DNA of 64,000 nt, taken from positions 32,001-96,000 of the forward strand of contig JBBQRQ010000001.1 in assembly GCA_038214755.1 (NCBI GenBank). The letters run 5' to 3'. How positions within the stretch are numbered: the stretch's first letter is position 1; each line of letters starts with the position of its first letter. Positions 16,020 through 34,637 of this stretch are shown here, one piece after another. Below the pieces are notes generated by a model. The model had not been told where the DNA came from, searched no databases, and worked only from the letters and a program-made list of their open reading frames with translations. Made by a program: the position numbers and the translations under genes. This DNA is from Verrucomicrobiota bacterium (GTDB lineage Bacteria > Verrucomicrobiota > Verrucomicrobiia > Limisphaerales > CANJXF01).

Positions 16020-16035
16020 TGGATCGAGGCCGAGA

Positions 16036-17247: not shown

Positions 17248-17614
17248 GTTGCGCCAGGGAGCCTTTGATGGGGGCGTCGTCGAGCCGCAGGGGAAGGAAG
17301 CGGCGCTCCTTGTTCAGCGGGTCGCGAAACCGGAACGTGCCGGACTCCAACTGCGCCCAGTCCGAGCCGAACGCATGGGCCGACATGCAGAGCACCAGCA
17401 CGCGCGAGTGCTCCAGCCCTTCCTCGATCTTCGCCGCCCTCACCCCTGACCCCTCTCCCATCCGATGGGCGAGGGGAACCTCAGGCTTGAGCCCCCATTC
17501 ATCGAACCACACCTTCACCCCGTCCTTCCGCAACCGTTCCGCCAGCGGGCGCACCACCGCCTTGTCCTTTGCGCTGTGGCTCAGGAAGACGTCGTGTTGG
17601 AAATCATTCGACAT
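17237..17614 (-). CDS. TIR (TIR_2-like) domain, probably the truncated N-terminus of a larger gene
   Basis: DVFLSHSAKDK..VRPLAERL..DGVKVWFDEW, SDWAQLE with conserved Glu. Confidence 0.85.
   Translation of the reverse strand: MSNDFQHDVFLSHSAKDKAVVRPLAERLRKDGVKVWFDEWGLKPEVPLAHRMGEGSGVRAAKIEEGLEHSRVLVLCMSAHAFGSDWAQLESGTFRFRDPLNKERRFLPLRLDDAPIKGSLAQHAD
17437..17476. repeat. Family I hairpin (CCCTCACCCC...CCCTCTCCC...GGGCGAGGGG) in frame inside the TIR ORF
   Basis: Encodes PLAHRMGEGSGVR; related to repeats at 34333-34493 and 62168-62735. Confidence 0.75.
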
Positions 17615-17749
17615 GCGTTATCTCGGCGATGTAAGGCGAAACGCTTGGGTTCTTCAAGTTACATATTCTACCAACGGCAAGAAATAGAGGTTTAAAGCTA
17701 ATCGAGTTGACGCGACTTCGGGAAAAGTTTGAAACTTCGTTTTATCACT

Positions 17750-20428
17750 ATGCGCAAGCTGCTTTCTTTTTCTCATTTCTTTTCTTTTAGTTTCGCGGTG
17801 ATTTGTTTTTTTGCAGCTACGCTGATTTCCGCGAAGATCGCAGCGGAAGAGATTCGTCCTGACCTTGATTATTTTCCGTCGCGTCTGCACGCCGCTATTT
17901 TTCGGAACTGGGACATTGTTCCGCACGAGCGGCTGGCGAAAGTTTTGGCCACAGATATTTCTGTCATTGAAAAGGCGGGCAAAGAACTTGGCCTGCATAA
18001 AGCAAAATCGCTCACGCCGGAGGAAATCCACCGCAACATCGAAATCGTTTTGCGCCGCAACTGGCCGCTTTTCCCGCGAAATCAAATTGAAGAACTGCTG
18101 AACTTTTCGCCGCAAGAATTTGACGAGTTTCTATCGAAGGAAATTTTTCTGCGCGCGCTATTGGCGAGTCCGCCGCCCGGTCTAACGCCGTTGAAATTCA
18201 CTTCGGAGGGACGCGCTCCGCAAGTCCCCTATCAAAAAGAAAATTCAGGGACTCGCGGAGCGCGTCCCTCCGAGGTTTTGGCAGCGCGGGTGCAATGGTT
18301 CGGCGAACAGGTTCGCAAGCATCTCAAAAATGTAGGTGACACGCCGGAGGAACCGAGACTCGCTTTCGTCTCGGAGCTTTGTCAGGCGCACAATCCGGAG
18401 GATTTTATTCGCGGAACAAGACCGAAGCCGGGCGACGCGGATTTGGGTTTGTTCAAGACGATTCACTTGTCATTTGAACCAGGAATTGTTTTGAAAAATG
18501 CCGCCAAGGATTTCTCCGATTATTGCGAACAGGTTCAGCACGCCAGAAAACTCAAGCTGTCCGATGCGGCGGATTCATCCCGTAAAATGATCTGGCTTGA
18601 TCTGACTACATCCTCCAATGCAACCGAAACTTATGCGCTGAAAATTTCTTCCGATTCGATTTCTCTATCGTCCGGCAGCGAACTTGGCCTCGCTCGCGGC
18701 CTGATGGAATTGGAAAGAAGAATGGCCGAGCGCGGCGGGCCTTTTCTTTCGCCAACGGATGAAACGAATTCTCCATCGTTTAGTCTGCGTTATGTCTCCT
18801 CCTATTTTTCGCTGCTGACCGATCCGCTCGGCCACGATTTGGATTACGGATTTTCCGACGGTTACTTGAATGAAATTTTTCATCAGGACGCCGATGGCAT
18901 TTGGCTCTACGTGTTGTTGAATGATCTGGTGCCGTCGCCGGTTTTTGAGGGGATGGGCGTTGGCAGCGAAGCGCGATTGCAGCGCCTGCGTGATCTGGTG
19001 AATCGCGCCGCTAAACGTGGTTTGAAAGTTTATCTTTATCTCAACGAACCGCGCGCGCAGTTCCTTCCGTTCTTCGACAAATATCCCGAAGTCAAAGGCC
19101 AGCCTGAGGGCAACACCGCCGCGCTTTGCACTTCAACTGATCTTGTGCAAAAACATTTGCGCGGTTCGTGCGAAAAATTATTCCGCGAAGTTCCTGGACT
19201 CGGTGGTGTCTTCGTCATCACTGCGAGCGAAAATCTTTCCAATTGTTACTCGCATCGCTACGGAAAAAATCTTCTGTGCCCGCGTTGCGCAAAGCGCACT
19301 CCAGCCGAGGTGGTCGCAGAAACCATTCGCTGCATGTCGGAAGGTGTTTGGGCCGCCGACCCGAAAGCCAAGTTCATCGTCTGGGATTGGAGCTGGCACT
19401 CGGTTCTCGGCGAAGAAGTTCCTGAACAAATCATTCAACGCTTGCCGAAAGGCGTCGGGCTGATGGCGGATTTTGAACGCGGCACCCGCATCGAACGCGG
19501 CGGAATTCCGATGAACGTCGAGGAATATTCCATTTCTACCATTGGTCCGTCACCGCGCGCGAAGATTCGGTCTGAACAAGCCAAAAAATTTGGTTTTGAT
19601 TTTCTCGCGAAGATTCAACTCTCGACCACATGGGAATGCGGAACCGTTCCGTTCATTCCAGTTCCAAATCTGCTTGCGCGAAAAGCGCAGGGAATGCGCA
19701 ACATCGGCGTGAATGGCGTGATGGCGACGTGGACGATCGGCAGTTATCCGTCACCGAATACCGAAGCGTTCGCAATTCAAAATTGGAATCCCAATCTGTC
19801 AGAGGAAGAAGTTTTGCGGAGAATCGCAGCGAAACGTTACGGACCGGCCGCAGTTGAAAGTGCCGTGCGCGGCTGGACAAAGTTAAGCGCAGCGTTCGCG
19901 GAAGAATTTCCCTTTTCGGTTTCGCCCTATTCCGCGCCACTCCAACACGGGCCCTCGCTACCGCTCTATCGCCGGGATATTCCGCCGCCTTACGGACAGG
20001 TGACTCTTTTTAATTGCAAAGATGATTGGCAACATTGGCCGCCGCCGTATTCGCCAGAAATGATGACGAAACTTTTGCGCCACCTGTGCGATCGATGGGA
20101 CGAAGGATTGAAAGATTTGCGCGAAGTGGTGGAGAGAAGCGGAGGGCGTCGCAAAATGGCCGAACGCGATTTAGGCGTCGCGTGGATGGTGGGTTATTAT
20201 TGGCGGGCTTACGCGAATGATCTGGAATTTTACAAAGCGCGCGACGGCGGAGATGCCACGGGCATGAAACAAATCGCAGCGGAAGAACTGAAAAATACTG
20301 AGCAAGCATTTCGGCTCGTGCGAAGTGATTCACGCTTCGGTTGGGAAGCGGAACTGCAATATTTTTATCGGCCTTTGGATGTCCTGGAACGATTGATTTC
20401 ACTCGACGCGGTGTTGCAGCCGCAATGA
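17750..20428 (+). CDS. Large exported putative glycoside hydrolase-like protein (GH20 domain-2-like plus barrel)
   Basis: Signal peptide, ETYALKIS...ISLS...GLARG, GLKVYLYLNEP; family uncertain. Confidence 0.65.
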   Translation: MRKLLSFSHFFSFSFAVICFFAATLISAKIAAEEIRPDLDYFPSRLHAAIFRNWDIVPHERLAKVLATDISVIEKAGKELGLHKAKSLTPEEIHRNIEIVLRRNWPLFPRNQIEELLNFSPQEFDEFLSKEIFLRALLASPPPGLTPLKFTSEGRAPQVPYQKENSGTRGARPSEVLAARVQWFGEQVRKHLKNVGDTPEEPRLAFVSELCQAHNPEDFIRGTRPKPGDADLGLFKTIHLSFEPGIVLKNAAKDFSDYCEQVQHARKLKLSDAADSSRKMIWLDLTTSSNATETYALKISSDSISLSSGSELGLARGLMELERRMAERGGPFLSPTDETNSPSFSLRYVSSYFSLLTDPLGHDLDYGFSDGYLNEIFHQDADGIWLYVLLNDLVPSPVFEGMGVGSEARLQRLRDLVNRAAKRGLKVYLYLNEPRAQFLPFFDKYPEVKGQPEGNTAALCTSTDLVQKHLRGSCEKLFREVPGLGGVFVITASENLSNCYSHRYGKNLLCPRCAKRTPAEVVAETIRCMSEGVWAADPKAKFIVWDWSWHSVLGEEVPEQIIQRLPKGVGLMADFERGTRIERGGIPMNVEEYSISTIGPSPRAKIRSEQAKKFGFDFLAKIQLSTTWECGTVPFIPVPNLLARKAQGMRNIGVNGVMATWTIGSYPSPNTEAFAIQNWNPNLSEEEVLRRIAAKRYGPAAVESAVRGWTKLSAAFAEEFPFSVSPYSAPLQHGPSLPLYRRDIPPPYGQVTLFNCKDDWQHWPPPYSPEMMTKLLRHLCDRWDEGLKDLREVVERSGGRRKMAERDLGVAWMVGYYWRAYANDLEFYKARDGGDATGMKQIAAEELKNTEQAFRLVRSDSRFGWEAELQYFYRPLDVLERLISLDAVLQPQ
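18203..18273. repeat. Family G doublet (TCGGAGGGACGCGCTCCGC...GCGGAGCGCGTCCCTCCGA) in frame inside the CDS
   Basis: 19-bp perfect inverted arms; encodes SEGRAPQVPYQKENSGTRGARPSE. Confidence 0.88.
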
Positions 20429-20799
20429 TTGGGAATGCTTTTCAGCACATCCCTTTCCTTCAATCCTTTAGTTTGAAAATGAAGCGTCTTTTTCATTCCT
20501 GCGCGGAAGGTGTTCAACTATTTTGCAGACGAAAAACCCTCTCCATTCACCGACGAATAAATATGAAAACTTTTTCTCAAAAAAATCTGGCACGCTACGT
20601 GTTCGTGTTGAGTTTTACGACGAGTGCGCCTATTTCTTACGCGTCGCTCAACCAACTCATCACGCAGATTTCGTGGATAAAATTGGAGCCGGGGAATGCG
20701 CGGGTTTCGCAGGCGAATGCTGGGCAAAAATAAAAGGCGTGTTTTTCAAAATCAATTTCATGGAAGGAAGTCCGCACAGGGTTGGGGTGAGCGTTGGGA

Positions 20800-20899
20800 A
20801 AAGCGGTAGAGGACTACCGCACTCCAAGACGCTCGCGCGTTGGATAATCGACTTGGAATGGCGCGAAGCGTCTTGGTGTGCGCCAGTCCTCTGGCGCTT
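20800..20899. repeat. Family L doublet (AAGCGGTAGAGGACTACCGCACTCCAAGACGCT...AGCGTCTTGGTGTGCGCCAGTCCTCTGGCGCTT)
   Basis: Imperfect inverted arms with internal hairpins. Confidence 0.75.
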
Positions 20900-20947
20900 G
20901 AGCGGATATTGAAACCCTAACTCGGAAATAAATCTTGGAATAATTTT

Positions 20948-21259
20948 ATGAAAGCGGTTTTGGAAAACTCATCTCTTCGCACCCGCCGGAGGCAGATGCT
21001 ACCCGATTTACCACGTCGCGAATTTTTGAAAACGTCTGCGTTGGCAGCCGGCGGAATTTTTGTCGCCGAAAATGTCGAGTGGGCGATTGAGAATCGCGCC
21101 GTTTATGATTTTCTTTCGCACCCTGCCGTGCTTTGCGCCAAAGACCCGGAGTTCAAAGCAATTGATTTGATTTGCGACCTTGTGAAAAACGCCGGCGACC
21201 GTGCTGAGTTGGTGGATTTGGAAACCATCGCTGGGCAAATGAAATCAACCAAAGCTTAG
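20948..21259 (+). pseudogene. Internally deleted gene: Tat signal (RREFLK) fused to a deacetylase-like C-terminus; family B arm at 20976-21004
   Basis: Signal peptide joined directly to VEWAIENRAVYDFLSHP... Confidence 0.55.
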
Positions 21260-21295
21260 AGATGTTCAGTTAACCTCAGAGCAATCAAATCACTC

Positions 21296-24200
21296 GTGGT
21301 GATTCTTCGAAATTTAATTCTCCTGTGTTTCGTCGCCATGAGTGGCGTTGCAGAGCAACTCGATTTGTCCAAACTTCCGCCGCCTTCGCCTCGGCAAATT
21401 GATTTTGTTCGGGACATTCAACCGATTCTTTCCGAGCGGTGTTATTCGTGCCACGGCGAGTTGAAACAGGAGAGCGAATTGCGCTGGGACACGAAATCCT
21501 CCGCGTTCAAAGGCGGCGCTTCCGGCAAAGTTATCATTCCCGGAAAAAGCAGCGAAAGCCGAATGATTCATCTCGTCGCTGGCTTGGAAAAAAATCTCGT
21601 CATGCCTAAAAAAGGCGAACGATTGACGGCGGAACAAATTGGTTTGCTACGGGCGTGGATTGATCAGGGCGCAAATTGGCCGGAGCAAGTCGCGCTACCG
21701 ACAACCAAAGACAAATCCGATTGGTGGAGTTTCAAACCAGCATCGCGTCCTGACTTGCCCCGGGGCGCGGCTGTGTCGGGCTCGACCAGCCGCAGCGCAT
21801 CGAAGAAAGAAGACGCAACAGATTTATCCCAGCGACCTTTCAATGCGAAGCCGCTGCGGCTGGGCAAAGACGACACAGCCGCGCTCCAAAAAAATTGGGC
21901 GCGAAATGAAATCGATCTTTTTATTTTGGCGAAGTTGCAGGAACAAAAATTAGGGCCGTCGCCGGAAGCGGATCGGCGCACGTTGATTCGCCGCTTGAGT
22001 TTTGATCTCACCGGTTTGCCGCCGTCGCCCGAAGAAGTGGAAAAATTTGTCAGCGACAAAAGTCCCAAGGCTTACGAAAAACTCGTGGATCGTTTGCTGG
22101 CGTCGCCGCGCTACGGCGAACGTTGGGCGCGACATTGGCTCGACGTGGTTCATTTCGGCGAGACGCACGGCTATGATAAAGACAAGCCGCGTCTCAATGC
22201 CTGGCCGTATCGCGATTACGTCATTCGTTCACTGAACAGCGACAAGCCGTATTCAAAATTTGTCGAGGAACAACTTGCCGGCGACGTGCTTCATCCTGAC
22301 AGCCCGGACGGAATCGTGGCGCTCGGTTTTATTGCCGCTGGTCCGTGGGACTTTGTCGGGCATGTCGAGTTGCCGATTGAAAAAACCGACGGACTGATCG
22401 CGCGCTACAACGATCGCGACGATATGGTGATGACGACGATTTCAACTTTTCAAAGTCTAACGGTCCACTGTGCGCGTTGTCACAATCACAAATTCGATCC
22501 GATCACGCAGAAAGATTATTACAGTTTGCAATCGGTCTTTGCCGGAGTGGATCGCGCAGATAGAAATTTTGATTCAGACAAATCGGTTCAAGTTAAGCGC
22601 CGGGATTTTAGTCAGGAGAAAAAACTTTTGGAGAATCAACTCGCTGTTTTGACGAACCAGATCGCCAGGGTTTCGAGTCCCGCACTTGAGAAACTCAATT
22701 CGCAATTGGCGAACTTGAAATCGCAATCGGGTGTCTCGGACACAGCCGAGAAAAGTCCGAGCAACGGTTATCACAGCGGAATTGCGAAAACCCCCCACGT
22801 CACGAAATGGGTTCAGGTGGATTTGGGCGCAGAAAAGCAAATCGATCAAATTCGTCTCGTGCCGGCGAGGCCGGTGGATTTTCCGAATACGCCGGGCTTT
22901 GGTTTCCCACTGCGCTTCCGTGTCGAAATGTCCGACGAATCAGAGTTCAAGAAAGGAGAGATTCTCGCGGACTTTAGCGGCTTCGATTTTAAAAATCCGG
23001 GCGACGATGCCTTCACGATTCTGGTGAACAAACAAGCGACGCGCTTTGTTCGCGTGACCGCGACAAAATTATGGAAACGCACCGATGATTATGTTTTTGC
23101 GCTGGCGGAACTACAGGTTTTTTCAAACGGCACAAACGTCACCGAACACGCTGAAGTTTCAGCGCTCGATTCGATTGAAGGCGGTTTGTGGTCCAAAAAA
23201 TTTCTGGTGGATGGTTTCAGCAGCCGAACCAAGCTGAAGCCTGTTGTTTCTGTCACTGAGCAAAAAAGCCACGACGATTTAGAAAACCAAATTCAAGCAG
23301 TCCAGGAACAGCGTTCCAAATTGGTGGACTCGTTGGTTCCTCCTTTGATCAAAAAAGATTTTCAGAGCGTCACGAATCGTCTCGGCGAGTTGGCTCGCGA
23401 GATCAGCGGTTTGCCGCCTCAGCAAAAAGTGTTTGCCGCCACGAGCGATTTTCCGCCGAACGGAAATTTCATTCCTGCAAAAGTCCCACGGCCAGTGCAT
23501 CTGCTCGCGCGCGGCGATGTGACACAACCTCGTGATTTGATGCGTGCTGCCGGAGTCGCTTCCGTTGCTGGACCCAATCCTGAATTTGAAATCTCAGATA
23601 CGAATAACGAAGGCGCTCGCCGCGCCGCTCTGGCCAAATGGATAACTGATCCGAAAAACATGCTGACGCGTCGGTCGATTGTGAATCGCGTTTGGCAATA
23701 TCATTTCGAGCGCGGCATCGTCGAGACGGCGAATGATTTCGGTCACATGGGCGCGTTGCCGACGCATCCCGAATTACTCGACTGGCTCGCATTTTGGTTT
23801 TTGGAAAATGGCGAGTCGTTGAAAACACTTCATCGCCTCATCGTCACCAGTGCGACGTATCGTCAAAGTTCATCAATCAATCCTGATCTCGCGAAGTTGG
23901 ACGCCGACAATCGTTTTCTTTGGCGGATGAATTGCGAACGACTCGATGCCGAATCGATTCGCGATTCAATGTTGCTGATTAGTGGGAAACTGGATCTGGC
24001 AATGGGCGGGCCATCTATTCAGCAATTCGGTTTCAAAGACGATCATTCGCCGGTCTATGATTACACGCAGTTCGACGGAAACAGCGCCGCTGCGTGCCGC
24101 CGGAGTATTTACAGTTTCACGGTGCGGAGCGCGCCTGATCCGTTGATGGAATCGCTGGATTGCCCGGACGCTTCCATTCTCGCGCCGAAACGAAATGTCA

Positions 24201-24451
24201 CCATGACTTCGTTGCAGGCGCTGGCCGTTTTGAATAATCCGTTCGTGTTGAAGCAATGCGCGAATCTGGCGAGCCGCGTTTCAAAATCTGGCGATTTAAA
24301 AATTCAGGTTGCCCAAGCTTTTCAACTCTCCTTGAATCGTGCGCCGACCGCCGACGAAATGAAAAAACTGATTCCGTTCGCGGAAAAAAACGGCATGGAA
24401 AATTTTTGTCGCCTCCTTTTCAACCTGTCTGAATTCATGTTTGTTGATTGA
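21296..24451 (+). CDS. Planctomycete cytochrome c / DUF1549 / DUF1553 protein with discoidin-like insert
   Basis: CYSCH and CARCH heme motifs, YGERWARHWLD, PTHPELLDWLA. Confidence 0.92.
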   Translation: MVILRNLILLCFVAMSGVAEQLDLSKLPPPSPRQIDFVRDIQPILSERCYSCHGELKQESELRWDTKSSAFKGGASGKVIIPGKSSESRMIHLVAGLEKNLVMPKKGERLTAEQIGLLRAWIDQGANWPEQVALPTTKDKSDWWSFKPASRPDLPRGAAVSGSTSRSASKKEDATDLSQRPFNAKPLRLGKDDTAALQKNWARNEIDLFILAKLQEQKLGPSPEADRRTLIRRLSFDLTGLPPSPEEVEKFVSDKSPKAYEKLVDRLLASPRYGERWARHWLDVVHFGETHGYDKDKPRLNAWPYRDYVIRSLNSDKPYSKFVEEQLAGDVLHPDSPDGIVALGFIAAGPWDFVGHVELPIEKTDGLIARYNDRDDMVMTTISTFQSLTVHCARCHNHKFDPITQKDYYSLQSVFAGVDRADRNFDSDKSVQVKRRDFSQEKKLLENQLAVLTNQIARVSSPALEKLNSQLANLKSQSGVSDTAEKSPSNGYHSGIAKTPHVTKWVQVDLGAEKQIDQIRLVPARPVDFPNTPGFGFPLRFRVEMSDESEFKKGEILADFSGFDFKNPGDDAFTILVNKQATRFVRVTATKLWKRTDDYVFALAELQVFSNGTNVTEHAEVSALDSIEGGLWSKKFLVDGFSSRTKLKPVVSVTEQKSHDDLENQIQAVQEQRSKLVDSLVPPLIKKDFQSVTNRLGELAREISGLPPQQKVFAATSDFPPNGNFIPAKVPRPVHLLARGDVTQPRDLMRAAGVASVAGPNPEFEISDTNNEGARRAALAKWITDPKNMLTRRSIVNRVWQYHFERGIVETANDFGHMGALPTHPELLDWLAFWFLENGESLKTLHRLIVTSATYRQSSSINPDLAKLDADNRFLWRMNCERLDAESIRDSMLLISGKLDLAMGGPSIQQFGFKDDHSPVYDYTQFDGNSAAACRRSIYSFTVRSAPDPLMESLDCPDASILAPKRNVTMTSLQALAVLNNPFVLKQCANLASRVSKSGDLKIQVAQAFQLSLNRAPTADEMKKLIPFAEKNGMENFCRLLFNLSEFMFVD
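21762..21887. repeat. Family F doublet in frame inside the DUF1549 gene
   Basis: GCGCGGCTGTGTCG...CAGCCGCAG / CTGCGGCTG...CGACACAGCCGCGC; intergenic sibling at 41084-41206. Confidence 0.88.
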
Positions 24452-25947
24452 TGAAAACCAATGCCCACATTTGTTCCTCGCAACAACAGCCCGTTCAACT
24501 CGGCGCGGGAGATTCCCGGCTCATTGACCGGCGCGAATTTCTCTGGCGCTTCGGCGGCGGACTCGGCGGGATTGCAATGGTTCATTTGCTCGGCGAAAAC
24601 GGATTGCTCGCCGAAGTGGCAAAACCGAAACAGGAATTCAATGGCGGCTTGCATTTTCCAGCGAAAGCCAAACGCGTCGTGCAACTTTTCATGTCGGGCG
24701 CGGCCAGCCAATGCGACACGTTTGATTACAAACCAGAACTTATCAAACGCGCTGGGCAAAAATTTGATCCGGGCGGAAAAGTGGAATTGTTTCAAAGCGA
24801 TCCGGGCGCGGTAATGAAAAGTCCGTGGGACTGGAAACAATACGGTCAATGCGGCAAATGGATTTCCGATTTGGTGCCGCACATCGGCTCGTGCGCCGAC
24901 GACATCACGTTCATTCATTCGATGATCTCGAAGTCAAACGTGCACGGCCCGGCCACGTTCATGCAAAACACCGGTTTTGTTTTTCCCGGATTTCCAAGTA
25001 TGGGCGGCTGGATCTCTTATGGGCTGGGAAGTCTCACGGAAAATTTGCCAACGTTCGTGGTGCTGCCCGATCCGCGGGGCCTTGCGCCAAACGGGCAGTC
25101 AAACTGGTCGGCTGGTTTTCTTCCCGCCGCGCATCAAGGCACGATGATTCGCATGGGGAAACCAAATCCAATTTATGATTTGTTTCCTCCAAAATCGGCG
25201 AACTTCATCACGCCCGAAAGCGAACGCGAAACACAAACGTTGCTCAAAGAATTAAATGAAATACATCTCGCCACGCGCGCGGGAGATTCGCGGCTCGATG
25301 CCCGAATCGCGTCGTACGAACTGGCCGCGAAGTTGCAACTGAGCGCGCCGGAAGTTTTGGATGTTTCAAGTGAGAGCGATGCGACAAAAAAACTTTATGG
25401 CCTCGACGAAAAAATCACGGAAGATTTTGGGCAACGTTGTCTGGTTGCGCGCCGGTTGCTGGAGCGCGGCGTTCGTTTTGTGCAGGTGTGGAGCGGGGCG
25501 GACAACGGATTTCCCCGACGCAACTGGGACAGTCACGAAGACCTTGCCAAAGATCATCTCGACATGGCGCGCAGCATGGACAAACCGGCGGCCGCGCTGC
25601 TCAAAGATTTGAAAGCGCGCGGAATGCTAGACGACACGATTGTTATTTGGACAACGGAGTTTGGCCGAATGCCGTGCAGTCAAGGGAGCAAAGGTCGCGA
25701 CCACAATCCATTTGCGTTCACGAGTTGGGTTGCGGGCGGCGGATTCAAAGGTGGAACTTCATTTGGCGAAAGCGATGAGTGGTCTTACAAGGCCGCGAAA
25801 GATCCGACTTATTGCTACGATCTACACGCGACGATTCTTCGGCAACTCGGCATCGACCATGAGAAATTGACCTTTCGTCACAACGGAATTGACCGGCGGT
25901 TGACCGATGTTCACGGGGAAGTGATTAAGGAAATTATTTCCGCCTGA
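24448..25947 (+). CDS. DUF1501 domain protein
   Basis: RREFL Tat motif, AKAKRVVQLFMSG, LLERGVRFVQV, TEFGR.P, GRDHN. Confidence 0.92.
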   Translation: MMKTNAHICSSQQQPVQLGAGDSRLIDRREFLWRFGGGLGGIAMVHLLGENGLLAEVAKPKQEFNGGLHFPAKAKRVVQLFMSGAASQCDTFDYKPELIKRAGQKFDPGGKVELFQSDPGAVMKSPWDWKQYGQCGKWISDLVPHIGSCADDITFIHSMISKSNVHGPATFMQNTGFVFPGFPSMGGWISYGLGSLTENLPTFVVLPDPRGLAPNGQSNWSAGFLPAAHQGTMIRMGKPNPIYDLFPPKSANFITPESERETQTLLKELNEIHLATRAGDSRLDARIASYELAAKLQLSAPEVLDVSSESDATKKLYGLDEKITEDFGQRCLVARRLLERGVRFVQVWSGADNGFPRRNWDSHEDLAKDHLDMARSMDKPAAALLKDLKARGMLDDTIVIWTTEFGRMPCSQGSKGRDHNPFAFTSWVAGGGFKGGTSFGESDEWSYKAAKDPTYCYDLHATILRQLGIDHEKLTFRHNGIDRRLTDVHGEVIKEIISA

Positions 25948-25980
25948 AGGTGAGGCGTGTTGAGCGTTCGGGAATTGAGT

Positions 25981-26178
25981 TCATTCATCGCGCGATGCCA
26001 ACTGCGCTGACCGACGAAGCAATGATTGTTTCCAACGATTCATTTCAATGTGGGAACGGAATTTTTGCGATGAAAAAGAAGGCAGCGTCGGCGATTCAGC
26101 AAGCGGCGCGACCATCTGATTTTCCGCCCAGATACGGAGCTTGGCTTTGTAATCGTCGGTATATTTTATGCGCTTCAT
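25981..26178 (-). CDS. Small hypothetical protein, possibly orphan partner of a TA-like pair
   Basis: 65 aa ORF (LP.FSSQKFRSH.EMN.WK); no intact partner follows. Confidence 0.45.
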   Translation of the reverse strand: MKRIKYTDDYKAKLRIWAENQMVAPLAESPTLPSFSSQKFRSHIEMNRWKQSLLRRSAQLASRDE

Positions 26179-26210
26179 TTAATTGAAAGTGGCCATTGCG
26201 GCAACGGAGA

Positions 26211-26350
26211 TTATTGCGAGAAGGCTGGTTTATTCTTAGGCCAGAGGTGGTTTTGTTCGTAGGCGTGCGCGATTTTCAAAATGGTTTCCTCGCCGAAAGG
26301 TTTGCCAAGGAGTTGGTGGCCGGTGGTAGTTCGGGATTTGTCGTGAAACC
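26211..26350 (-). pseudogene. Degenerate second copy of the gatA 3' end (matches ~27159-27293)
   Basis: Reads [33 protein letters not shown]...stop versus Gat[34 protein letters not shown]. Confidence 0.88.
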
Positions 26351-26365
26351 CCAGCGCAACTCAAC

Positions 26366-26599
26366 TCATTCGCGAACGGACAAAACTTTTTTGCGTCCCT
26401 CCGAGTGCAAGCGCAACGACAACCGACCGGCGCGCACCCATCGTTTTTCCGCGCCCGCCTCGCGCACCATTTCCAGCAGGTAATGGATAAGAGTGGAGGT
26501 GGCTGCTCCCTGTTTGTGGCGAAATCGCCGCCGTCCAATCGCCAGCGCCCCGAATGACTCTGCCTCAGCCGCCTCGGCCAAATTGATTTTAGGTTTCAT
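26366..26599 (-). CDS. Small basic protein coupled to the GNAT gene
   Basis: ATGA overlap with GNAT stop. Confidence 0.55.
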   Translation of the reverse strand: MKPKINLAEAAEAESFGALAIGRRRFRHKQGAATSTLIHYLLEMVREAGAEKRWVRAGRLSLRLHSEGRKKVLSVRE

Positions 26600-27162
26600 A
26601 AGGTGATCCAACTTTGAGCTTGAGCTAATTTAAAAAATTCTTCTGCCGAATCAACATCGAATGTGAATACGTCGTAATTCTCATCCGATTTCGCGGTCTG
26701 TTCGGTCATGCCGATTCCCCGATAAAACATCAGCGTCTTTGCATCCGCCAACGACTCCAGCCATATTCGTCCTGCCATTCCCAATTCTTTACTGCGTGCC
26801 ACGGCCACAGCGAGCAACGTCACGCCGACATATTTCAGACCGCCCGTTCGATTTCTTGGATTCGTCGCCAGATACTCTAGGACGAGGGCTTCCGAACGTC
26901 CAATTTTTCTCCCTTTCGCCTCTATCGCCATCAAGCCATGCAGTTCTTCTCCTACGACTGCTGCGTAACACTCAATCGACGACCGACTGCGTTGAGTGAT
27001 CGCAAAAATTCCAGCCCAATCCCACTCGCGGTCGAGAGCGTTCTCTTCGTAATCCCACTGCGATTGTGCGGCGATGTCGAGCCACGTTGCTCGATGAATT
27101 TCCCCATTGACCCTGGCGCTATTTGCTCTTTCGACAAAACGCGCGGCAACAGGAAATTTCAT
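26596..27162 (-). CDS. GNAT-family acetyltransferase (toxin-like)
   Basis: [10 protein letters not shown]...[23 protein letters not shown].....FY...GM; start overlaps gatA stop. Confidence 0.8.
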
Positions 27163-28622
27163 AATGCCGCTTTCTCTTCGTGCCAATTCGTGGATTGCTC
27201 GTAGGCATGAGCGATTTTTAAAATCGTTTCTTCGCCAAAAGGTTTTCCGAGGAGTTGCAAACCGATGGGCAGTTTTGGGTTTGTCGTGAAGCCGCAGGGA
27301 ATACTGATCCCCGGAATGCCGGCGAGATTGCAGGAGATCGTGAAAATATCGGACAGATACATTTGCAACGGGTCGTCGGATTTTTCGCCGATTTTGAAAG
27401 CAGGCGTCGGAGTCGTTGGCGTGACGATGGCGTCCACTTTTTCAAACGCTTTCAGGAAATCCTGGCGGATGAGCGTGCGGACTTTTTGGGCGCGCAAATA
27501 AAATGCGTCGTAATAACCGCTGCTCAAAACGTAAGTGCCGAGGATGATGCGGCGTTTGACTTCCGCGCCGAATCCTGCGCCACGAGTGCGGCTGTAAAGT
27601 TCGTCGGGGCTCGTGCCTTCGACCCGCGCGCCGTAGCGGATGCCATCGAAGCGCGCGAGGTTGGCGCTGGCCTCGGCGGTGGCGACGATATAATAAGTTG
27701 CGACGGCGTAATCAGTGTGCGGCAAAGAAATTTCCACGATTTCCGCGCCCAGATTTTCGAGTTGCTTGACGGCTGTGTGGACCGCAGCGCTCACTTCAGG
27801 ATTCATCCCGCCGATCATGTATTCCTTTGGCAAACCCAGCCGCAGTCCTTTGATCTCGCCATTCAACGCCGCTGAATAATTTGCAACTGGTTGAGGAACA
27901 CTCGTGGAATCCCGATGGTCAACTCCGCTCATTACCTCGAGCAATATCGCCGCATCGCGCACGTCTTTTGTCAGCGGACCAATTTGATCGAGCGACGATG
28001 CAAATGCGACGAGACCGTATCGCGAAATGCGTCCGTAAGTTGGCTTGAGTCCGATGCAGCCACAGAGCGCGGCGGGTTGGCGAATCGAGCCGCCGGTGTC
28101 GGTGCCGAGTGATGCGAGACATTCGTCCGCTGCGACGGCTGCCGCCGAACCGCCGGATGAACCGCCGGGAATTCGCGTCGTGTCCCACGGATTTTTCGTG
28201 ACGCCGAACGCGGAATTTTCCGTCGAACTGCCCATGGCAAATTCATCCATGTTCAATCGGCCAAAAATAATTGCTCCAGCGGATTTTAATTTTTCAATGG
28301 CCGTCGCGTCATACGGCGAAATGAATTGGCCGAGAATTCCTGAGCCGCAATTCAGCGGCTGATTTTTCACGGCGAGCACGTCTTTGACGGCGATAGGAAT
28401 TCCGAGCAGCGGTCTTTGTAATTGCGTTGCGCCGCTGAAAATTTCTTTATCTGCGGCGTCAGCCTGGGCGAGAGCATCCGTCGCATCGTAAGAAATAAAA
28501 GCGTGAACTTTCCCCTCCACGCGCTGGATTTGGTCGAGGCACGATTGCATCGCTTCGCGCGCGGAGACTTCGCGCTTGGATAATTTTTCTGCGAGTTCGG
28601 AAATAGTGAGTTGGTTGAGCAT
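27159..28622 (-). CDS. gatA: Asp/Glu-tRNA amidotransferase subunit A
   Basis: [60 protein letters not shown]. Confidence 0.97.
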
Positions 28623-28626
28623 GAAG

Positions 28627-29016
28627 TTATTTCGTAGGAATTCCAAAAGCAGTGCGCGCCTCGTTGCGAAAGGCGCGACAGGTTTTCAGCGCGCGTTCGG
28701 CTTCCCCCTTCGTGAAAATACTTCCTGGGTAACGCGGCTGTATTGCGGAATTCGTCAAGTCTTTCAGAGCGGCGTGAAAAGCAACCCATAATGGTTCGAC
28801 GGCAACGGACTGGTTAAGCAATTGCTCCAGATCGTGGCTCTTGTAAAACTGGATTGAGGCTTCGTTCAACCGCGCCTTCAAATATTTTTCCACGCATTGC
28901 TGCGCATGAAAGCATACGGGCGCGAATAATGGCTTTTTCTTCAAGCGCGACAACGCGACCGCCGCTTGGAAATCTTCTTCCGCTTTCGTGATCCAATCGC
29001 GGGTGCTAGCCTTCAT
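28627..29016 (-). CDS. HEPN domain protein
   Basis: [28 protein letters not shown]. Confidence 0.9.
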
Positions 29017-29386
29017 AAAGAACGACCCCGCGATTCATCACCAGTTCAATAAACATGTCCCGCTCTTGCAAACGCCTGGCAATAAATCCCGGCTTGCGCA
29101 CCAGTAAATCCAATGCAAAAGGTGCGTCAAAGCGCGCACGGATTTCTCGCGCTTTGTTTACTTCATTGCCACGAAATCCCAAGACGACGAGCAAATCCAC
29201 GTCCGACTCTGGCGTCGGCGTTCCGTAAGCATGAGAACCGAATAAAATGATCTTGCTGGGACGAAACTCACGCACCAGCCCATCGCAATAAGCCCGGATG
29301 TCCATCAGCGGCACGACCGACCGCGCTCCAGATTTGGAGGACCCCGCCATCTCCTGCGCCAAACCATTTTCAAGGCGTGGTTTCAT
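29006..29386 (-). CDS. Minimal nucleotidyltransferase (MNT)
   Basis: IILFGSHAYG.PTPESDVDLLVV, GVVLYE. Confidence 0.9.
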   Translation of the reverse strand: MKPRLENGLAQEMAGSSKSGARSVVPLMDIRAYCDGLVREFRPSKIILFGSHAYGTPTPESDVDLLVVLGFRGNEVNKAREIRARFDAPFALDLLVRKPGFIARRLQERDMFIELVMNRGVVLYEG

Positions 29387-29664
29387 TCCACAATTTTTGG
29401 CACGAGAAAAAGCCCGTTCGCCTTCGAGGGCGCGTTGCGCAACGCCTCTTCGTTGGAAAGCGATGGGCGAATTTCGTCCGCGCGAAAAACATTGATCAGT
29501 GGCACAGCGTGGGCGGTTGGCTCGACATTGCTCACGTCCAATTCTTTCAATTTTTCGATGTAGCTGAGGATGTTCTTAAGTTGAACTCCGAGCTTTTCTT
29601 CCTCGTCCGGGGACAAGGCCACGCGCGCGAGGTGGGCGACGTACTTCACATCGAAATCTGACAT
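29383..29664 (-). CDS. gatC: Asp/Glu-tRNA amidotransferase subunit C
   Basis: VAHLARV, LDVSNVEPTAH, NAP....LFLVPKIVE. Confidence 0.95.
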   Translation of the reverse strand: MSDFDVKYVAHLARVALSPDEEEKLGVQLKNILSYIEKLKELDVSNVEPTAHAVPLINVFRADEIRPSLSNEEALRNAPSKANGLFLVPKIVE

Positions 29665-29799
29665 GCGAAAAAATTACGGAGCGTGAATGAAACTTCAAGG
29701 TTCAAAAGCGGAGATGCGCTGCCTCAGATCTTTCTCAGAGTGTTTGCATTTGGTGAGGTGCGGGCCCGTACGTTCACGGGCTGGAAGTGCTCCGGCAAA

Positions 29800-29985
29800 T
29801 GCACAGCCAGCCGCGAAAAAATATTGTCGTCGTCTTGACTTCTTCTGGCGCGGAATCCGACATCGAAACCGCCTACGAATTCGGCGCTAATTCTTATTTG
29901 CTCAAACCCAGCACAGTGGAAGAACGATTGGAACGGGTCAGAGATTTGGAAAAATATTGGCTGGGCCGAAATAAATGTCCGGGCC
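29800..29985 (+). pseudogene. C-terminal half of a CheY-like receiver domain
   Basis: VVVLTSS...SDIETAYEFGANSYLLKP; phospho-acceptor half missing; boundaries approximate. Confidence 0.65.
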
Positions 29986-30018
29986 GCCTGGTACTGCGGC
30001 TACGGCGGTTAAGAAAAA

Positions 30019-30309
30019 TTACTCTTCGTCAAACTTCCGCCTCAGCAATGATTCGAGTTCTTCCAGAGCAGCACTGCCATCCTTGCCTTGGACGGAGACG
30101 GTAATTTTGCTCCCAGGCCCGGCGGCGAGCATCATCAAACCCATGATGCTTTTGCCATTTACTTTCTCGCCATCTTTCTCCACAAAGATTTCGCAATCGA
30201 ATCGGTTGGCCGTTTTGACGAACATGGCGGCGGGACGCGCGTGAATCCCCAGCTTGTTGGTGACGACAAGTTCTCGTTCATGGCCTGGGGTTAATTTCTT
30301 CGCGCTCAT
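30019..30309 (-). CDS. ptsH: Phosphocarrier HPr
   Basis: GIHARPA, NGKSIMGLMML. Confidence 0.95.
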   Translation of the reverse strand: MSAKKLTPGHERELVVTNKLGIHARPAAMFVKTANRFDCEIFVEKDGEKVNGKSIMGLMMLAAGPGSKITVSVQGKDGSAALEELESLLRRKFDEE

Positions 30310-30348
30310 CAAAGTGATTCAGCCAAACAATATTTTTTGCAGAAAGTT

Positions 30349-31296
30349 TTACAAGCGCAGATTGCCCGACATTTGCGCCAGAAGCCGGTCGTTCAATTCC
30401 TGCGCCGGATTGTGGCCGGATGATTTGAGCTTCGTTTGAAACGCCGCGACCTCGATAAGCCGCGCCAAATCTCGTCCCGGTCGCACCGGAATTGTGATGT
30501 GCGAAATATCGATGCCCAAAATCTTCACGAATTGCTCGTCCATCCCGAGCCGATCGACATCATCGACTTGGTCCCATGATTTGAGAGTCACGACCAGATC
30601 GACCCGCTTTTCCTGGCGAATACTTTTGACGCCAAACATGGCCGCGACATTGATGATGCCGATGCCGCGCACCTCCATGTGATTGCGCGTGAGGTCCGCG
30701 CTGGTGCCGACCACTTCGCGTCCATCGATCACCGTGACGCGCGTGATGTCGTCGGAAACCAAACTGTAACCGCGATCGATCAGCGCCAGAACAGTTTCAC
30801 TTTTTCCAATGCCGCTCTCTCCGCGAATAATCACGCCGATGCCGAGAATATCGACCATGCTGCCAATGTCTGAGCCGCGCGGGGCGAACAACATTTCCAG
30901 CGCGAGCGTGGCGAGGTTGATAAACTTCATCGTGATCAGCGGACACTTGAACACCGGCACGTCCGCGGTCTCCGCAGCTTGCAACAAAAGTTTATCCGGC
31001 TGCAAATTGCGCGAAAAAACAACGCAGGGAATTTTGTGGGAAAATAAAGTTTGATAACGTTCTTTGCGTTCTTCGGTCGAGAGCGATTTCAAAAAAGTGA
31101 ATTCCGCATTGCCGATGACTTGAATGCGTTTGTTGGCGAAGTAGCGAGTGAAACCGGCCAGCGCGAGGCCCGGCCGATTCACCGTCGGCTCGCGAATCAC
31201 TCGCTTCAATCCGTTGGCGCCGGCAACGAGTTGCATTTGCAATGCGCCGGATTGCTCGCTGTAGAATCGCTCGACTGTGATGTCGTCTTGTTTCAT
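30349..31296 (-). CDS. hprK: HPr kinase/phosphorylase
   Basis: NRPGLALAGF, GESGIGKSE, LVSDD, MEVRGIGIINV, IPVRPGR. Confidence 0.95.
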   Translation of the reverse strand: MKQDDITVERFYSEQSGALQMQLVAGANGLKRVIREPTVNRPGLALAGFTRYFANKRIQVIGNAEFTFLKSLSTEERKERYQTLFSHKIPCVVFSRNLQPDKLLLQAAETADVPVFKCPLITMKFINLATLALEMLFAPRGSDIGSMVDILGIGVIIRGESGIGKSETVLALIDRGYSLVSDDITRVTVIDGREVVGTSADLTRNHMEVRGIGIINVAAMFGVKSIRQEKRVDLVVTLKSWDQVDDVDRLGMDEQFVKILGIDISHITIPVRPGRDLARLIEVAAFQTKLKSSGHNPAQELNDRLLAQMSGNLRL

Positions 31297-31311
31297 GAGT
31301 GAAGGATAAAG

Positions 31312-31383
31312 CGTGAAACGTGAAACGTGAATTCCTATTTCACGCTTCACGTTTCACGTCTCACGCTTCGCGCTTCACTTCAC
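31312..31383. repeat. Inverted heptamer array (CGTGAAA)n...(TTTCACG)n
   Basis: Between lptB and hprK; a related short run (GCGGAAC) at 36481-36510. Confidence 0.8.
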
Positions 31384-32102
31384 ATATTAAAATCCGGCCC
31401 CAGGTAAATCTCCCGCGCCTTCGGATCCTTTGCCAAAAATTCCGCCGACCCTTCGCGCAGGACTTCGCCTTTCACGATGATGTAGCCGCGGTCAATCAGC
31501 TTCAACATTTCGCGCACGCTGTGATCAGTGATTAAAATTCCCAAACTGCGATCGCGCAGACGGCGCACAATTTTTTGCACTTCGTACACGGCGATCGGAT
31601 CGATTCCGGCAAAAGGCTCATCGAGCAAAAGCAATTTCGGACTCGTCACCAGCGCGCGCGTGATTTCCAATCGGCGCTTTTCGCCGCCGCTCAAGGTGTA
31701 GGCTTTGTTTTTGGCGAGCGGCGCGAGATCCAATTCATCGAGCAAATATTTCAGCCGCGCTTTTCGCTCCGCTCCGTCTATTTTGCACGTCTCCAAAATG
31801 GCGAGAATATTTTGCTCAACCGTCAGCTTGCGAAACACCGACGGCTCCTGCGTAAGATAACCAATGCCAAGACGCGCGCGTTTGTGCATCGGCAACGTCG
31901 TGATTTCTTTTCCTTCAAACTTCACCGCGCCTTCGTCCGGCTTCACAATTCCGACGACCATGTTGAACGTCGTCGTTTTTCCCGCGCCATTGGGTCCGAG
32001 CAGCCCGACGATTTCTCCTGCGGCGACATTGATCGAAACGCCATCAACCACTCGACGATGTCCATAGGCTTTTACCAATTTTTCAGTGGTCAACAAACTC
32101 AT
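31380..32102 (-). CDS. lptB: LPS export ABC transporter ATPase
   Basis: GLLGPNGAGKTT, LSGGEKRRLEI, LDEPFAGIDP, GILITDH. Confidence 0.95.
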   Translation of the reverse strand: MSLLTTEKLVKAYGHRRVVDGVSINVAAGEIVGLLGPNGAGKTTTFNMVVGIVKPDEGAVKFEGKEITTLPMHKRARLGIGYLTQEPSVFRKLTVEQNILAILETCKIDGAERKARLKYLLDELDLAPLAKNKAYTLSGGEKRRLEITRALVTSPKLLLLDEPFAGIDPIAVYEVQKIVRRLRDRSLGILITDHSVREMLKLIDRGYIIVKGEVLREGSAEFLAKDPKAREIYLGPDFNM

Positions 32103-32140
32103 GGTTTCAAGAGTGCTTTCGTTCCGGATTTTGCGCCAGA

Positions 32141-32258
32141 GCCGTAGCGCAGGTTTTTAACCTGCTGTATCGCAGGTTTGCAACCTGCTGGCCATCTCCC
32201 TTCAGCGCATACCGATTGCAAATCGGCGATACAGCAGCTTACAAAGCTGCGCTACGGC
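32141..32258. repeat. Family E element; supplies the TAG stop of the lptA-like gene
   Basis: Matches 1389-1499 in reverse orientation. Confidence 0.9.
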
Positions 32259-34312
32259 TTTTGCCATTCCGGCCTGATTGCGTTCGCCGAGTTGAGCGGA
32301 GTCACTTTGTAGGGACGCGCGCTCATTTTTCCCGTTTTCAAATCCCAACGCAAAGTCGTGGCATCGCTAATCAAAAGCGTGTCCGTGGCCGCTGAAGGTT
32401 GGCCGGTTAATTCCGCGAGGTCCCCGGCTGAATCATAAACGGCCCGTTCTCCATTGGCGCGAATCTGCTTTCTGCCGGAACCGATCTGCTCAATTTTTTC
32501 CAGCAAAACATTTTGCTCGGCCACGATGCTTTCAATCTGATTGGTCGTCGGCAAAAATTTTATATCGACTCGTTCCGCGGAAATGCGTTTGACCGTTATG
32601 CTCGGACTCAACTGGCCTTCTCCGTAGCCGCCGACGTGAGGAGGCGGATTGGCGCGCCCATGTCGGGAGTCCGCCTCCTCACGTCGGCGGCTACGATTGT
32701 CTGTGCCAGTGCGTTCCGTCTGTTCGCCCACCACTTTGGTTCGGGCATGAATGCTTTCGAACAAACCCGTGCTGGGAGATCGGTTGAGTTGGACCGATTG
32801 GCCAGTGATGGTTCTCTCCAGAATTTTTGAAAGAGCAGCCGCGCCGACAATCTGTTGGAGAAAAACATTTTGCTTCGCGACAACAACTTCCACCTGGTTG
32901 CTCGCGCCGAATGAGACTGCCAAAAAATGGCAGCGCAAAAGCGTTTGTGAAAGATTCGTGTCCACCGTTTTCGCGCGGACATGTTCCCGGAACGTCGCAA
33001 GATTCGTGCGATAGGAAAAATCATCTGACCAAATTTCGACGATTTGCGCCGCCCTTGAATTTGTGGAACTACCGGCTGCAAAAGTTTTGCCGAACATCGC
33101 CGCGGGCAGTTTCAAGTACACATTCGTTCGCGCCCCAAAAAAATGATTCGTCCGGCCAAAGACCAGAACCTCGCCGGTGATTGCGCTCTCTTTCATTTTC
33201 CAATTCGGATTTCCGGTCAACTCCATCAGCCCCGTCGCTTCGCGGTAGATGGCGCGTTCGGCAGTGGCGCGGCTCTGATCGCTCTCGCTCGTGATCACCA
33301 CATTGGTTTCGGCAAGCATTTCCTGAATTGGCCCGTTGGTCGGCATTTTAAAAGTCATCACGTCCGAGGAAACGATGACCCGGCTTTGCGCTGCCGCATT
33401 TGTCGTTGTGGAAACTGCGCTCAGATTCAGCGCATCCAGTTGAATGAGTTTGTGACGGGGAACTTTGAAAACGACATTTTGTTCGGCGCGAAATAAATTG
33501 TTCGCGCGATCAAAAATAAATTTGTCTGCTTGGCCTTCGCGCTCGCCGTCCGACCAAAACGGATGGCCGGTGAGTTCGACCATCTCCCGATTATTCTCCA
33601 AGGTGTAAGTCGCGTGATCACCCGTGGCGCGGCTGTTATCTTTTTTGTTAACGATGACGACGCGATTTTCCGCGATGATCTGCTGAATGGTTTTGTTGGT
33701 GGTAAGAACGATGTTCAATGAATCGCAAGTCAGTTCCATTTGCGGATCGTCCACGCGAACGTTTCCCGTGTAGGTGACGAGGTTCGATTCCAGGAGAAAC
33801 CGAAAATGATCGGAAAAAATCAGGAGTTGATTGGTGGAAGTTTTGCCGGACGCAGGAAAGGAATTTCCGGCTGAGTTCGTGTTAAACAAACTTTTGTTAA
33901 TCCTGGTTTCCACTTTGTTCGAAATGACCAGGAGCGCGTTGCTTTGCTGGCAGAAAAATCCCAGGCCCCGAATGTAAAGATTGGTCGTCACGGTGTAAGC
34001 CTTCATCGGGCCGGGCGACGATGCGACGGAGGTGTTGCGGTCAAACAAACATTCCGGCGCTTCAGCAATCAGCTCGACCTGGTTGGTGTCGCTGTTGCGT
34101 AAAATTTTCATGCGGAAATCAGTCACGAAAACTTGTGAGCCGGTGACTTGTTTGGCGCTTTTACCAGAGAGAATCGCTTTCAGTTTCTCGCCTTCGCGAT
34201 AGACGGCCTGAAAGCCTGTTCCGCTGACACGTTGAGGAGTTTGGGCGCGCAGAAAAATGATTCCGGTCGAAAATAAAATGGCGAGGAGGCCAAACTTTTT
34301 AGCCGTAACCAT
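32252..34312 (-). CDS. Long LptA/OstA-family beta-jellyroll protein (frame also open upstream to ATG 34669)
   Basis: Between kdsA and lptB; repeated YTGNVRV / AE.NV / RAT..(R/H)A.Y / ELTG.P units; hydrophobic N-terminus at MVTAKKFGLL. Confidence 0.8.
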   Translation of the reverse strand: MVTAKKFGLLAILFSTGIIFLRAQTPQRVSGTGFQAVYREGEKLKAILSGKSAKQVTGSQVFVTDFRMKILRNSDTNQVELIAEAPECLFDRNTSVASSPGPMKAYTVTTNLYIRGLGFFCQQSNALLVISNKVETRINKSLFNTNSAGNSFPASGKTSTNQLLIFSDHFRFLLESNLVTYTGNVRVDDPQMELTCDSLNIVLTTNKTIQQIIAENRVVIVNKKDNSRATGDHATYTLENNREMVELTGHPFWSDGEREGQADKFIFDRANNLFRAEQNVVFKVPRHKLIQLDALNLSAVSTTTNAAAQSRVIVSSDVMTFKMPTNGPIQEMLAETNVVITSESDQSRATAERAIYREATGLMELTGNPNWKMKESAITGEVLVFGRTNHFFGARTNVYLKLPAAMFGKTFAAGSSTNSRAAQIVEIWSDDFSYRTNLATFREHVRAKTVDTNLSQTLLRCHFLAVSFGASNQVEVVVAKQNVFLQQIVGAAALSKILERTITGQSVQLNRSPSTGLFESIHARTKVVGEQTERTGTDNRSRRREEADSRHGRANPPPHVGGYGEGQLSPSITVKRISAERVDIKFLPTTNQIESIVAEQNVLLEKIEQIGSGRKQIRANGERAVYDSAGDLAELTGQPSAATDTLLISDATTLRWDLKTGKMSARPYKVTPLNSANAIRPEWQKP
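32623..32695. repeat. Family A doublet in frame inside the lptA-like gene
   Basis: Same arms and 73-bp length as 7423-7495; encodes RSRRREEADSRHGRANPPPHVGGY. Confidence 0.92.
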
Positions 34313-34332
34313 GCAGTGGAAAAGATTGCCCG

Positions 34333-34493
34333 CCCTCACCCCAGCCCTCTCCCCCGAGGAGAGGGAACCTGAAATCATCGCTCTCGATAACTCACTGAAC
34401 GGTGCACATTTTCCCGCGCTGAAGAACGTTCTCCCTCTCCTCGGAGGAGAGGGCCGGGGTGAGGTCGAGCGTTTCTCTTCACTGAATAGTTCC
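34333..34493. repeat. Family I doublet
   Basis: Right part is the reverse complement of ~62411-62477. Confidence 0.85.
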
Positions 34494-34541
34494 GGTTTGG
34501 CGAACGAGAAAAACATATCAGATATCGAACGCCAAAGGAGC

Positions 34542-34637
34542 GGAGCGCGGACAGCCTTGTCCGCGCGAACCCGAAATGGTGAAACGCGTGGGGCTTTTGT
34601 TCGTTTTGAAGCGCGCGGACAAGGCTGTCCGCGCTCC
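34542..34637. repeat. Family H doublet (GGAGCGCGGACAGCCTTGTCCGCGCG...CGCGCGGACAAGGCTGTCCGCGCTCC)
   Basis: 26-bp perfect inverted arms. Confidence 0.88.

Follow-up and report, generated by a model that had tools for sequence, protein, structure and literature searches.

In-frame palindromic REP inserts in protein-coding genes of a verrucomicrobial genome, and RAYT-containing cassettes embedded in host genes

How do palindromic repeats of four different families come to lie inside four protein-coding genes while the reading frame of each is kept? The question is raised by a 64 kb window, positions 32,001–96,000 of contig JBBQRQ010000001.1, from the genome of a Verrucomicrobiota bacterium (assembly GCA_038214755.1, here G000; 5.1 Mb, 175 contigs, GC 52.7%, completeness 97%) that is described as free-living. 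A first-pass annotation made from the letters of the window had proposed four such in-frame palindromes. All four were found where it had placed them, within stop-free open reading frames (ORFs), and each folded better than 200 out of 200 shuffled sequences (z −3.4, −10.0, −8.2 and −10.1). Three of the four sites were empty in every ortholog compared. The explanation we favour, with a probability of roughly three in four, is an expansion of hairpins of the repetitive extragenic palindromic (REP) type and of their doublets (REPINs, REP doublets forming hairpins), whose insertions into genes would have been filtered for frame and would in some cases derive from cassettes that carry a REP-associated tyrosine transposase (RAYT) within the host gene.

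The inserts of families A, F and G are doublets of inverted units whose spacer varies, and that of family I is a single hairpin. The family A doublet (32623–32697, reverse strand) has GTAG feet and REPIN anatomy and lies in a gene with an LptA/LptD_N domain, upstream of an ABC ATPase gene, of which positions 32252–34312 (reverse strand) are shared with orthologs. The site was empty at 12 out of 12 ortholog loci, one of which comes from an unpublished genome (G009), the remaining 11 being enough; the net gain is 33 aa, 25 of them encoded by the REP. The complete LptA-like ORF is 805 aa long and its first ~120 codons, upstream of the ortholog-aligned part, cross an intergenic family I array that occurs together with family D (34326–34637). 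The family G doublet (18203–18273, forward strand) has GGAG feet and adds a net 20 aa to an 899-aa ORF (17729–20428, forward strand) at a site that was empty in 5 out of 5 orthologs, the closest being 79% identical. No Pfam family was found in this ORF that would bear out the name hydrolase given to it. The family F doublet (21761–21888, forward strand), also GGAG-footed with its 5' foot decayed to GGGG, adds a net 39 aa to a PSCyt1-DUF1549-DUF1553 gene (21296–24451, forward strand; Pfam) that is followed by a DUF1501 gene, and was missing from 6 out of 6 distinct ortholog genes. The net gain does not equal the length of the REP itself, so each insertion also replaced or added a few codons of the host. 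A check for inserts in loops had been suggested and was positive: in AlphaFold models the family A insert (residues 537–567, pLDDT, the per-residue model confidence, below 50; alignment including G009) lies in a beta-hairpin loop that joins two strands in a beta-rich fold and the family G insert in a low-confidence loop between two helices, and the family F insert falls in the linker between the Pfam domains PSCyt1 (49–107) and DUF1549 (205–419).

The repeats were counted genome-wide from seeds, frequent genome words that were grouped by hand into 26 families. This resulted in 3,366 units or 659 per Mb, compared to 22.7 per Mb in the congener G001 (2.38 of 4.4 Mb covered) and 1.6 per Mb in simulated DNA. 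Families A, I, F and G account for 344, 214, 34 and 7 units, respectively, and upon merging all units gave 1,512 elements with a total of 170 kb. Family G is low-copy, with 4 elements genome-wide of which 2 are intragenic. Family A was found in 101 of the 201 genomes of the order at 1–702 copies each, and its reversed-pattern controls had 0 matches among the genomes of the order. A GTAG foot was seen in 180 of 197 family A feet; the feet of F and G are GGAG, as are those of family D, which flanks two free RAYTs, and family I has no foot. Spacer sequence varies between REP copies.

A total of 160 elements (~11%) lie in frame within 136 ORFs, and the remaining ~89% lie outside that set. REP/REPIN elements are accordingly not restricted to extragenic positions here, and the expectation that four cases in 64 kb imply many more in the genome was borne out. 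The count of 160 combines confirmed cases with a coding model that kept 59 of 65 positives and 2 of 326 negatives and that misses the TIR case described below and inserts near gene ends. Among 120 elements with both flanks matching one G001 ORF, 93 were open, and under a strict ortholog-bracketed filter 65 out of 76 were open at a null expectation of 0.128. These 65 confirmed inserts are found in 55 ORFs and represent 15 families, so that in-frame insertion by several families, absent from orthologs, extends well beyond the window; their net gain has a median of 24 aa and spans 6–80 aa. The 11 strict cases that were not open comprise 4 gene borders, 5 shadow ORFs and 2 with a stop-free insert, in which the single stop probably precedes the start, and no clear broken gene was observed among the 11. 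Inserts are present in 48 of the 226 ORFs of at least 900 aa, about one in five, and their rate grows with ORF length from 3 to 24 per 100,000 codons. The hosts, named via their G001 orthologs, include DnaE (two inserts), DnaE2, AlaRS, ValRS (two), PheT, Fmt, SMC, IspG, HemL, AcnA, two UvrA (five inserts), Mfd, RecG, RecQ and MiaB, with flanks that are mostly 60–95% identical to G001 and free of stops.

Two observations on individual hosts are added here. A methylase-like ORF in another genome (L264, G175:C56) carries two in-frame family A doublets. In the 1442-aa ValRS ORF of G000 (contig C56) an unnamed domain of ~190 aa, missing from G001, occurs in frame as two related copies (residues ~490–715 and ~757–945), the second of which lies at the RAYT site of other ValRS proteins; the domain may be akin to the nuclease-fold domains of phage polyvalent proteins.

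The state of the host genes bears on whether these are young pseudogenes or repeat misassemblies, as might be suspected of a metagenome-assembled genome in which one of the window hosts, the TIR ORF, is truncated. Contigs of one DNA run spanned the G and F inserts without differences, although this run probably stems from the source sample and is not independent support, and none of its listed contigs bridged the A insert (LptA) or the I insert (TIR). This origin is nevertheless very unlikely: the hosts are essential and have the intact flanks noted above, spacers are specific to each copy, a genome of another family has the TIR insert too, and RAYTs embedded in host genes, described below, retain their motifs in 100 out of 103 DinG-like database proteins. 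Untranslated pseudogenes, or orthologs with the same peptides but no palindromic DNA, had been named at the outset as conditions under which the idea should fall; among the window hosts the TIR ORF is probably a relic, and the other three inserts are absent from orthologs.

Frame use within the genes was far from even. The left GTAG foot was distributed over its three reading frames as 33, 27 and 0, with the TAG frame used in 0 out of 60 cases, which argues that ribosomes cross the insert rather than that it is excised. The inserts would then be translated as part of the protein and not spliced. Splicing or bypass of the hairpins at the RNA level, leaving the peptide out of the protein, would fit long stable stems with meeting ends and the essential nature of the hosts, but a segment that is removed needs no frame, and the avoidance of TAG together with 65 open cases out of 76 against 12.8% expected makes RNA-level excision unlikely. 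Moreover, a search of positions 17000–35000 of the window returned no Rfam family at gathering score and none over the window inserts. We consider such bypass scarcely credible as an account of the inserts as a whole.

A further frame is avoided by family A. Its right-hand unit was read in the frame encoding SASSRRRL in 0 out of 26 cases, although 29 of 62 comparable intergenic cases leave that frame open and other families use it; the codons of this frame are CGT CGG CGG CTA, the last being the rarest leucine codon. That family A skips an open frame points to selection beyond stops and would be in line with adaptive inserts, which would act through mRNA hairpins on translation or decay, or through an added function of the loops. 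So would the enrichment in DNA-repair and tRNA-synthetase genes, a bias likewise reported in PMC3733652: replication, repair, helicase and synthetase genes make up 13 of the 55 hosts vs 3 among 55 controls matched for length (p 0.013; p 0.07 once RpoB and RpoC are counted). Adaptation is nonetheless unlikely, as frames and peptides differ between sites and the inserts are missing from congeners. Intragenic copies were also no closer to the consensus than other copies (six families, p 0.10–0.74), as expected for tolerated passengers. The suggestion that the repeats are a source of new peptide segments is true at the level of sequence.

In the explanation we favour, REP/REPIN-type hairpins from a lineage-specific expansion would insert imprecisely, often swapping a few host codons, and selection would retain events that keep the frame, create no TAG from the GTAG foot and fall in a surface loop or linker. 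Translation would turn the inserts into loops of 6–80 aa that the protein tolerates and that are probably near-neutral. Mobilisation would be by HUH enzymes acting on single-stranded hairpins, namely RAYTs and possibly a DUF559 protein for family I. Some RAYTs would persist as in-frame REP-RAYT-REP cassettes within housekeeping genes, and some REP-only inserts would be either the remnant left after loss of the RAYT from such a cassette or a landing pad for one. Of this scheme, the insertion, the frame bias, the loop position in two models and the three states at PriA and DinG are observed, whereas translation, neutrality, the identity of the enzymes and the order of events are inferred.

As to the enzymes, 17 Y1_Tnp matches were found in the genome. 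The RAYT-type genes lie between repeats of families B, C, D, J/M, L and O, and for these the proposal that the inserts are RAYT-driven is upheld as an association; for A, F, G and I it is not. A long family I array surrounds the only DUF559 gene of the genome (G000:C14:1282–3386) in an arrangement that is REPtron-like with a different nuclease. Five A-rich relatives have 9–14 Y1_Tnp matches each. No RAYT was found at three paired-A loci, and among 389 stored proteins there were no A or F peptides, the G-like matches being host sequence or a different repeat. The window itself holds a Y1_Tnp gene (15401–15856, reverse strand) with motifs DHVH, WQ and YVATQEEHH that resemble TnpA-Y1 subclass 1.2 in the motif table of PMC6006769. 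It has inverted repeats of its own (15295–15349 and 15911–15965) and was rejected as mobiliser of the four inserts on account of these different flanking repeats.

Three RAYTs of this genome do not stand alone but lie in frame within host ORFs of 998, 963 and 1439 aa. The hosts are PriA (G000:C88:17590–20601, L186), the sole PriA match in the genome, DinG (G000:C64:9580–12492, L187) and a UDPGP-domain protein (G000:C33:13406–17728, L188). Each embedded RAYT shows a Y1_Tnp domain, HUH and tyrosine motifs and REP-coded peptides on either side, and no splicing domain was detected by Pfam in the three proteins at E 0.01. Among the 30 best-scoring loci for the PriA site, a set biased to the RAYT-bearing query, 12 had this RAYT type, 2 another type, 1 a decayed in-frame copy, 1 the REP pair only (G177) and 14 none. 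The second type, which is DinG-like, sits at the same PriA site (L205, G159; L208, G106), which suggests independent invasions. For DinG the full cassette was present in 3 of 98 matched genomes, and among the 25 sites read the doublet stood alone in G034 and was partial in G071, G044 and G078. Three states, empty, REP-only and full, are seen at PriA and DinG. The doublets that flank the RAYT in DinG and UDPGP are repeated directly, at a distance divisible by three, so that crossing over between them would yield a single doublet in frame. The flanks in PriA are inverted with respect to each other, and loss of the middle would there produce a REPIN. The REP-only peptides of G177 (PriA) and G034 (DinG) match the cassette flanks.

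Embedding was not confined to this genome. The DinG RAYT matched 1,200 database proteins of 350–2,000 aa, and a free RAYT matched 392. Database homologs of the DinG protein are labelled Verrucomicrobiota and Limisphaerales, which suggests the same placement for this genome. Out of the 150 best cluster representatives 60 were at least 380 aa long, with hosts that include DnaE, ValRS, LeuRS, AlaRS, CarB, RecG, XseA and methylases, and the 100 out of 103 DinG-like proteins mentioned above have an embedded RAYT with both motifs intact. In 3 out of 8 comparable hosts (DnaE, AlaRS and IspG) a RAYT is found elsewhere at the very site that carries a REP only in this genome. The link between cassettes and REP inserts is supported, by sequence, at PriA, DinG and these three shared sites, and at none of the four window inserts.

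This can be set against plain insertion of REPINs in trans by a RAYT encoded elsewhere, with the embedded cassettes a separate accident and the shared sites a reflection of the few loops that tolerate inserts. We give this close to an even chance. It is favoured by 160 inserts vs 3 embedded RAYTs, by hosts that differ in site (5 out of 8), by the increase of insert rate with ORF length and by two REP families at one TIR site where no RAYT was seen, and tolerant loops alone could yield shared REP/RAYT sites. Against it stand the doublets that are repeated directly and in frame on either side of the RAYT in DinG and UDPGP, the match of REP-only peptides to cassette flanks and the over-representation of nucleic-acid enzymes among hosts, with the p values given. 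Most inserts, probably including the four in the window, may have arisen in trans, which is compatible with the favoured explanation. A bolder proposal, which we hold tentatively and at somewhat less than even odds, is that REP-RAYT-REP cassettes in Verrucomicrobiota and other phyla are non-splicing mobile protein inserts of essential nucleic-acid enzymes. They would be expressed by the host, lost only by precise in-frame deletion and, in PriA and DinG, perhaps carried to single-stranded DNA, and at fixed sites they would alternate between complete, decayed, REP-only and empty forms. A good part of the REP doublets that lie in frame, together with the repair and synthetase bias, would then be their footprints or pads.

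The TIR insert is the atypical case. The family I hairpin had been assigned to 17437–17476 and is corrected to 17437–17481 (reverse strand), 45 nt that replace 12 nt (GDSI) for a net gain of 11 aa. Its host is a truncated ORF of 125 aa (17237–17614, reverse strand; TIR_2 match 1–98 of 122) that ends after GSLAQ-HAD where full-length homologs go on, its stop overlapping the start codon of the next gene. Absence from orthologs held at 9 out of 13 TIR loci of relatives and failed at one: besides the 9 empty loci there was 1 with the same insert (G127, a 1267-aa open frame in a genome of another family), 1 with a different REP (G069) and 2 unread. The empty form was also carried by a contig of the DNA run. 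No TIR paralogs were found in this genome, and this together with the early stop suggests that the window case is probably an inherited insert in a relic ORF. At or near this position of the TIR domain, different genomes have family I (L250, G127:C25), another GTAG family (L261, G069:C62) or a short tandem-type repeat (L259, G097:C10), which makes it a hotspot of insertion in a mobile TIR module. In the window the TIR fragment is part of an accessory cluster (14696–17614) with DUF4365, the Y1_Tnp gene and a 403-aa ORF in which no Pfam family was found.

Several results weigh against the favoured explanation. In a genome that is 97% complete, no RAYT-like gene has A, F or G repeats at its sides, and a cognate RAYT was not found here even for family A, one of the most abundant families. 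No RAYT was present at the insert site in the orthologs read for the four window hosts, and in five of the eight comparable hosts (RecG, XdhA, ValRS, a methylase and a distant MiaB-like protein) the RAYT is at a different site. Between families the intragenic share differs 20-fold, with 2% in B and 45% in T, and only part of this is explained by stop content (rho 0.47, p 0.02). Finally, the TIR insert displaces four conserved residues in a truncated ORF.

In-frame REPs are already known in this phylum, and this genome is a larger instance of them; the first-pass annotation, which took REPs to be classically extragenic, overstated the novelty. REPINs are indeed described as almost exclusively extragenic, with RAYTs in extragenic space (Bertels and Rainey, bioRxiv 10.1101/2021.07.10.451892; Corneloup 2021, PMC8266576; Quentin 2018, PMC6006769). 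For Opitutus terrae, however, a table of 70 rows records GTAG REPs of families GTAG-17, -18 and -19 inside genes, in frame in hosts that include uvrA (twice), dnaE2, helicase and DNA ligase genes, with dimers encoding 20–30 aa, singles and dimers together 7–50 aa, a bias to repair genes and a suggested location in loops or linkers (Di Nocera 2013, PMC3733652). The present genome resembles O. terrae in phylum, in having several families, in singles and dimers and in DNA-repair hosts, and RAYTs of its relatives are bordered by peptides of a similar kind (GTGVSPV, TGGTPVP). It differs in having about twice the inserts, at least 15 families and also GGAG-footed and DUF559-linked families; orthologs and frame use were tested here, and no RAYT within a host gene is described in the part of that report consulted. 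Inserts that are in frame, absent from orthologs and within an intact host ORF, as in O. terrae and Rickettsia, are what was found here, for the TIR case in part. Conserved genes are likewise host to in-frame Rickettsia palindromic elements, R. conorii dnaE being one of them (Ogata 2000, cited in PMC3733652 and PMC3184786), and dnaE is hit in both systems. Those elements, CGTC-tagged or longer, belong to an intracellular organism with a reduced genome, and the passages that cite them report no transposase linked to them, whereas this 5.1-Mb genome is that of a free-living organism and has RAYT genes.

With REPIN-RAYT systems and REPtrons the present repeats share inverted doublets, a variable spacer, in families A, F and G a tetranucleotide foot, HUH and tyrosine motifs and, for families B, C, D, J/M, L and O, RAYTs flanked by their own family; unlike REPtrons, ~11% of the elements and three RAYTs are inside genes. 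In-frame REPs within tnpA-REP genes themselves are known (subclass 2.4), and unexpectedly long TnpA-Y1 proteins were dropped as fusions or annotation errors (Quentin 2018, PMC6006769). In PMC5581495 no match to fusion, domain, Planctomycetes or Verrucomicrobia was found. The full-text literature yielded no description of RAYTs in frame in host genes; subscription journals are mostly outside it, and unseen supplements of PMC3733652 (S4, S5) and PMC6006769 could mention such. Gene-embedded REP-RAYT-REP cassettes with several allele states and shared sites hence appear to be the new part. Inteins, homing-endonuclease group I introns and IStrons likewise bring a nuclease, at fixed positions, into the reading frame of conserved nucleic-acid enzymes. 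The cassettes resemble these in showing full, decayed and empty states. Unlike inteins they show no splicing domain by Pfam in the three proteins, and as the frame is kept the insert seems to be retained in the protein.

Elsewhere in the window families A, F and I also occur between genes, as first claimed. A family A doublet (7421–7495) lies outside the intragenic set, with further units at 42376–42666, 56870–57102, 59184–59394 and 62877–62946; an intergenic family F doublet is found at 41084–41206, and a family I array outside the intragenic set at 62170–62640. Three of the family A regions are nested REP mosaics of doublet within doublet (42376–42666, A-N-P-P-N-A; 56870–57102, A-B-E-E-B-A; 59184–59394, A-L-L-A). 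Heptamer tandem repeats of several unit types are abundant (window 9035–9113 and genome-wide), and in relatives without a RAYT the PriA and DinG linkers are filled by peptides similar to those of heptamer repeats. Direct duplications ~1.2 kb apart surround HpcH and amidohydrolase genes (10346–10609 and 11565–11831; 12137–12267 and 13320–13450).

For annotation, the results imply that upstream repeats lengthen ORFs and that long RAYT fusions are discarded as errors. Repeat-derived loops in 48 of 226 ORFs of at least 900 aa amount to a natural map of insertion-tolerant sites and offer a measurable route for selfish DNA to add protein sequence. Two further questions, the persistence of RAYT genes and the preference of intragenic REPs for repair genes, are touched by the gene-embedded cassettes; if the proposal for these is true, the repair-gene and tRNA-synthetase bias reported in 2013 (PMC3733652) would be the footprints or landing pads of cassettes.

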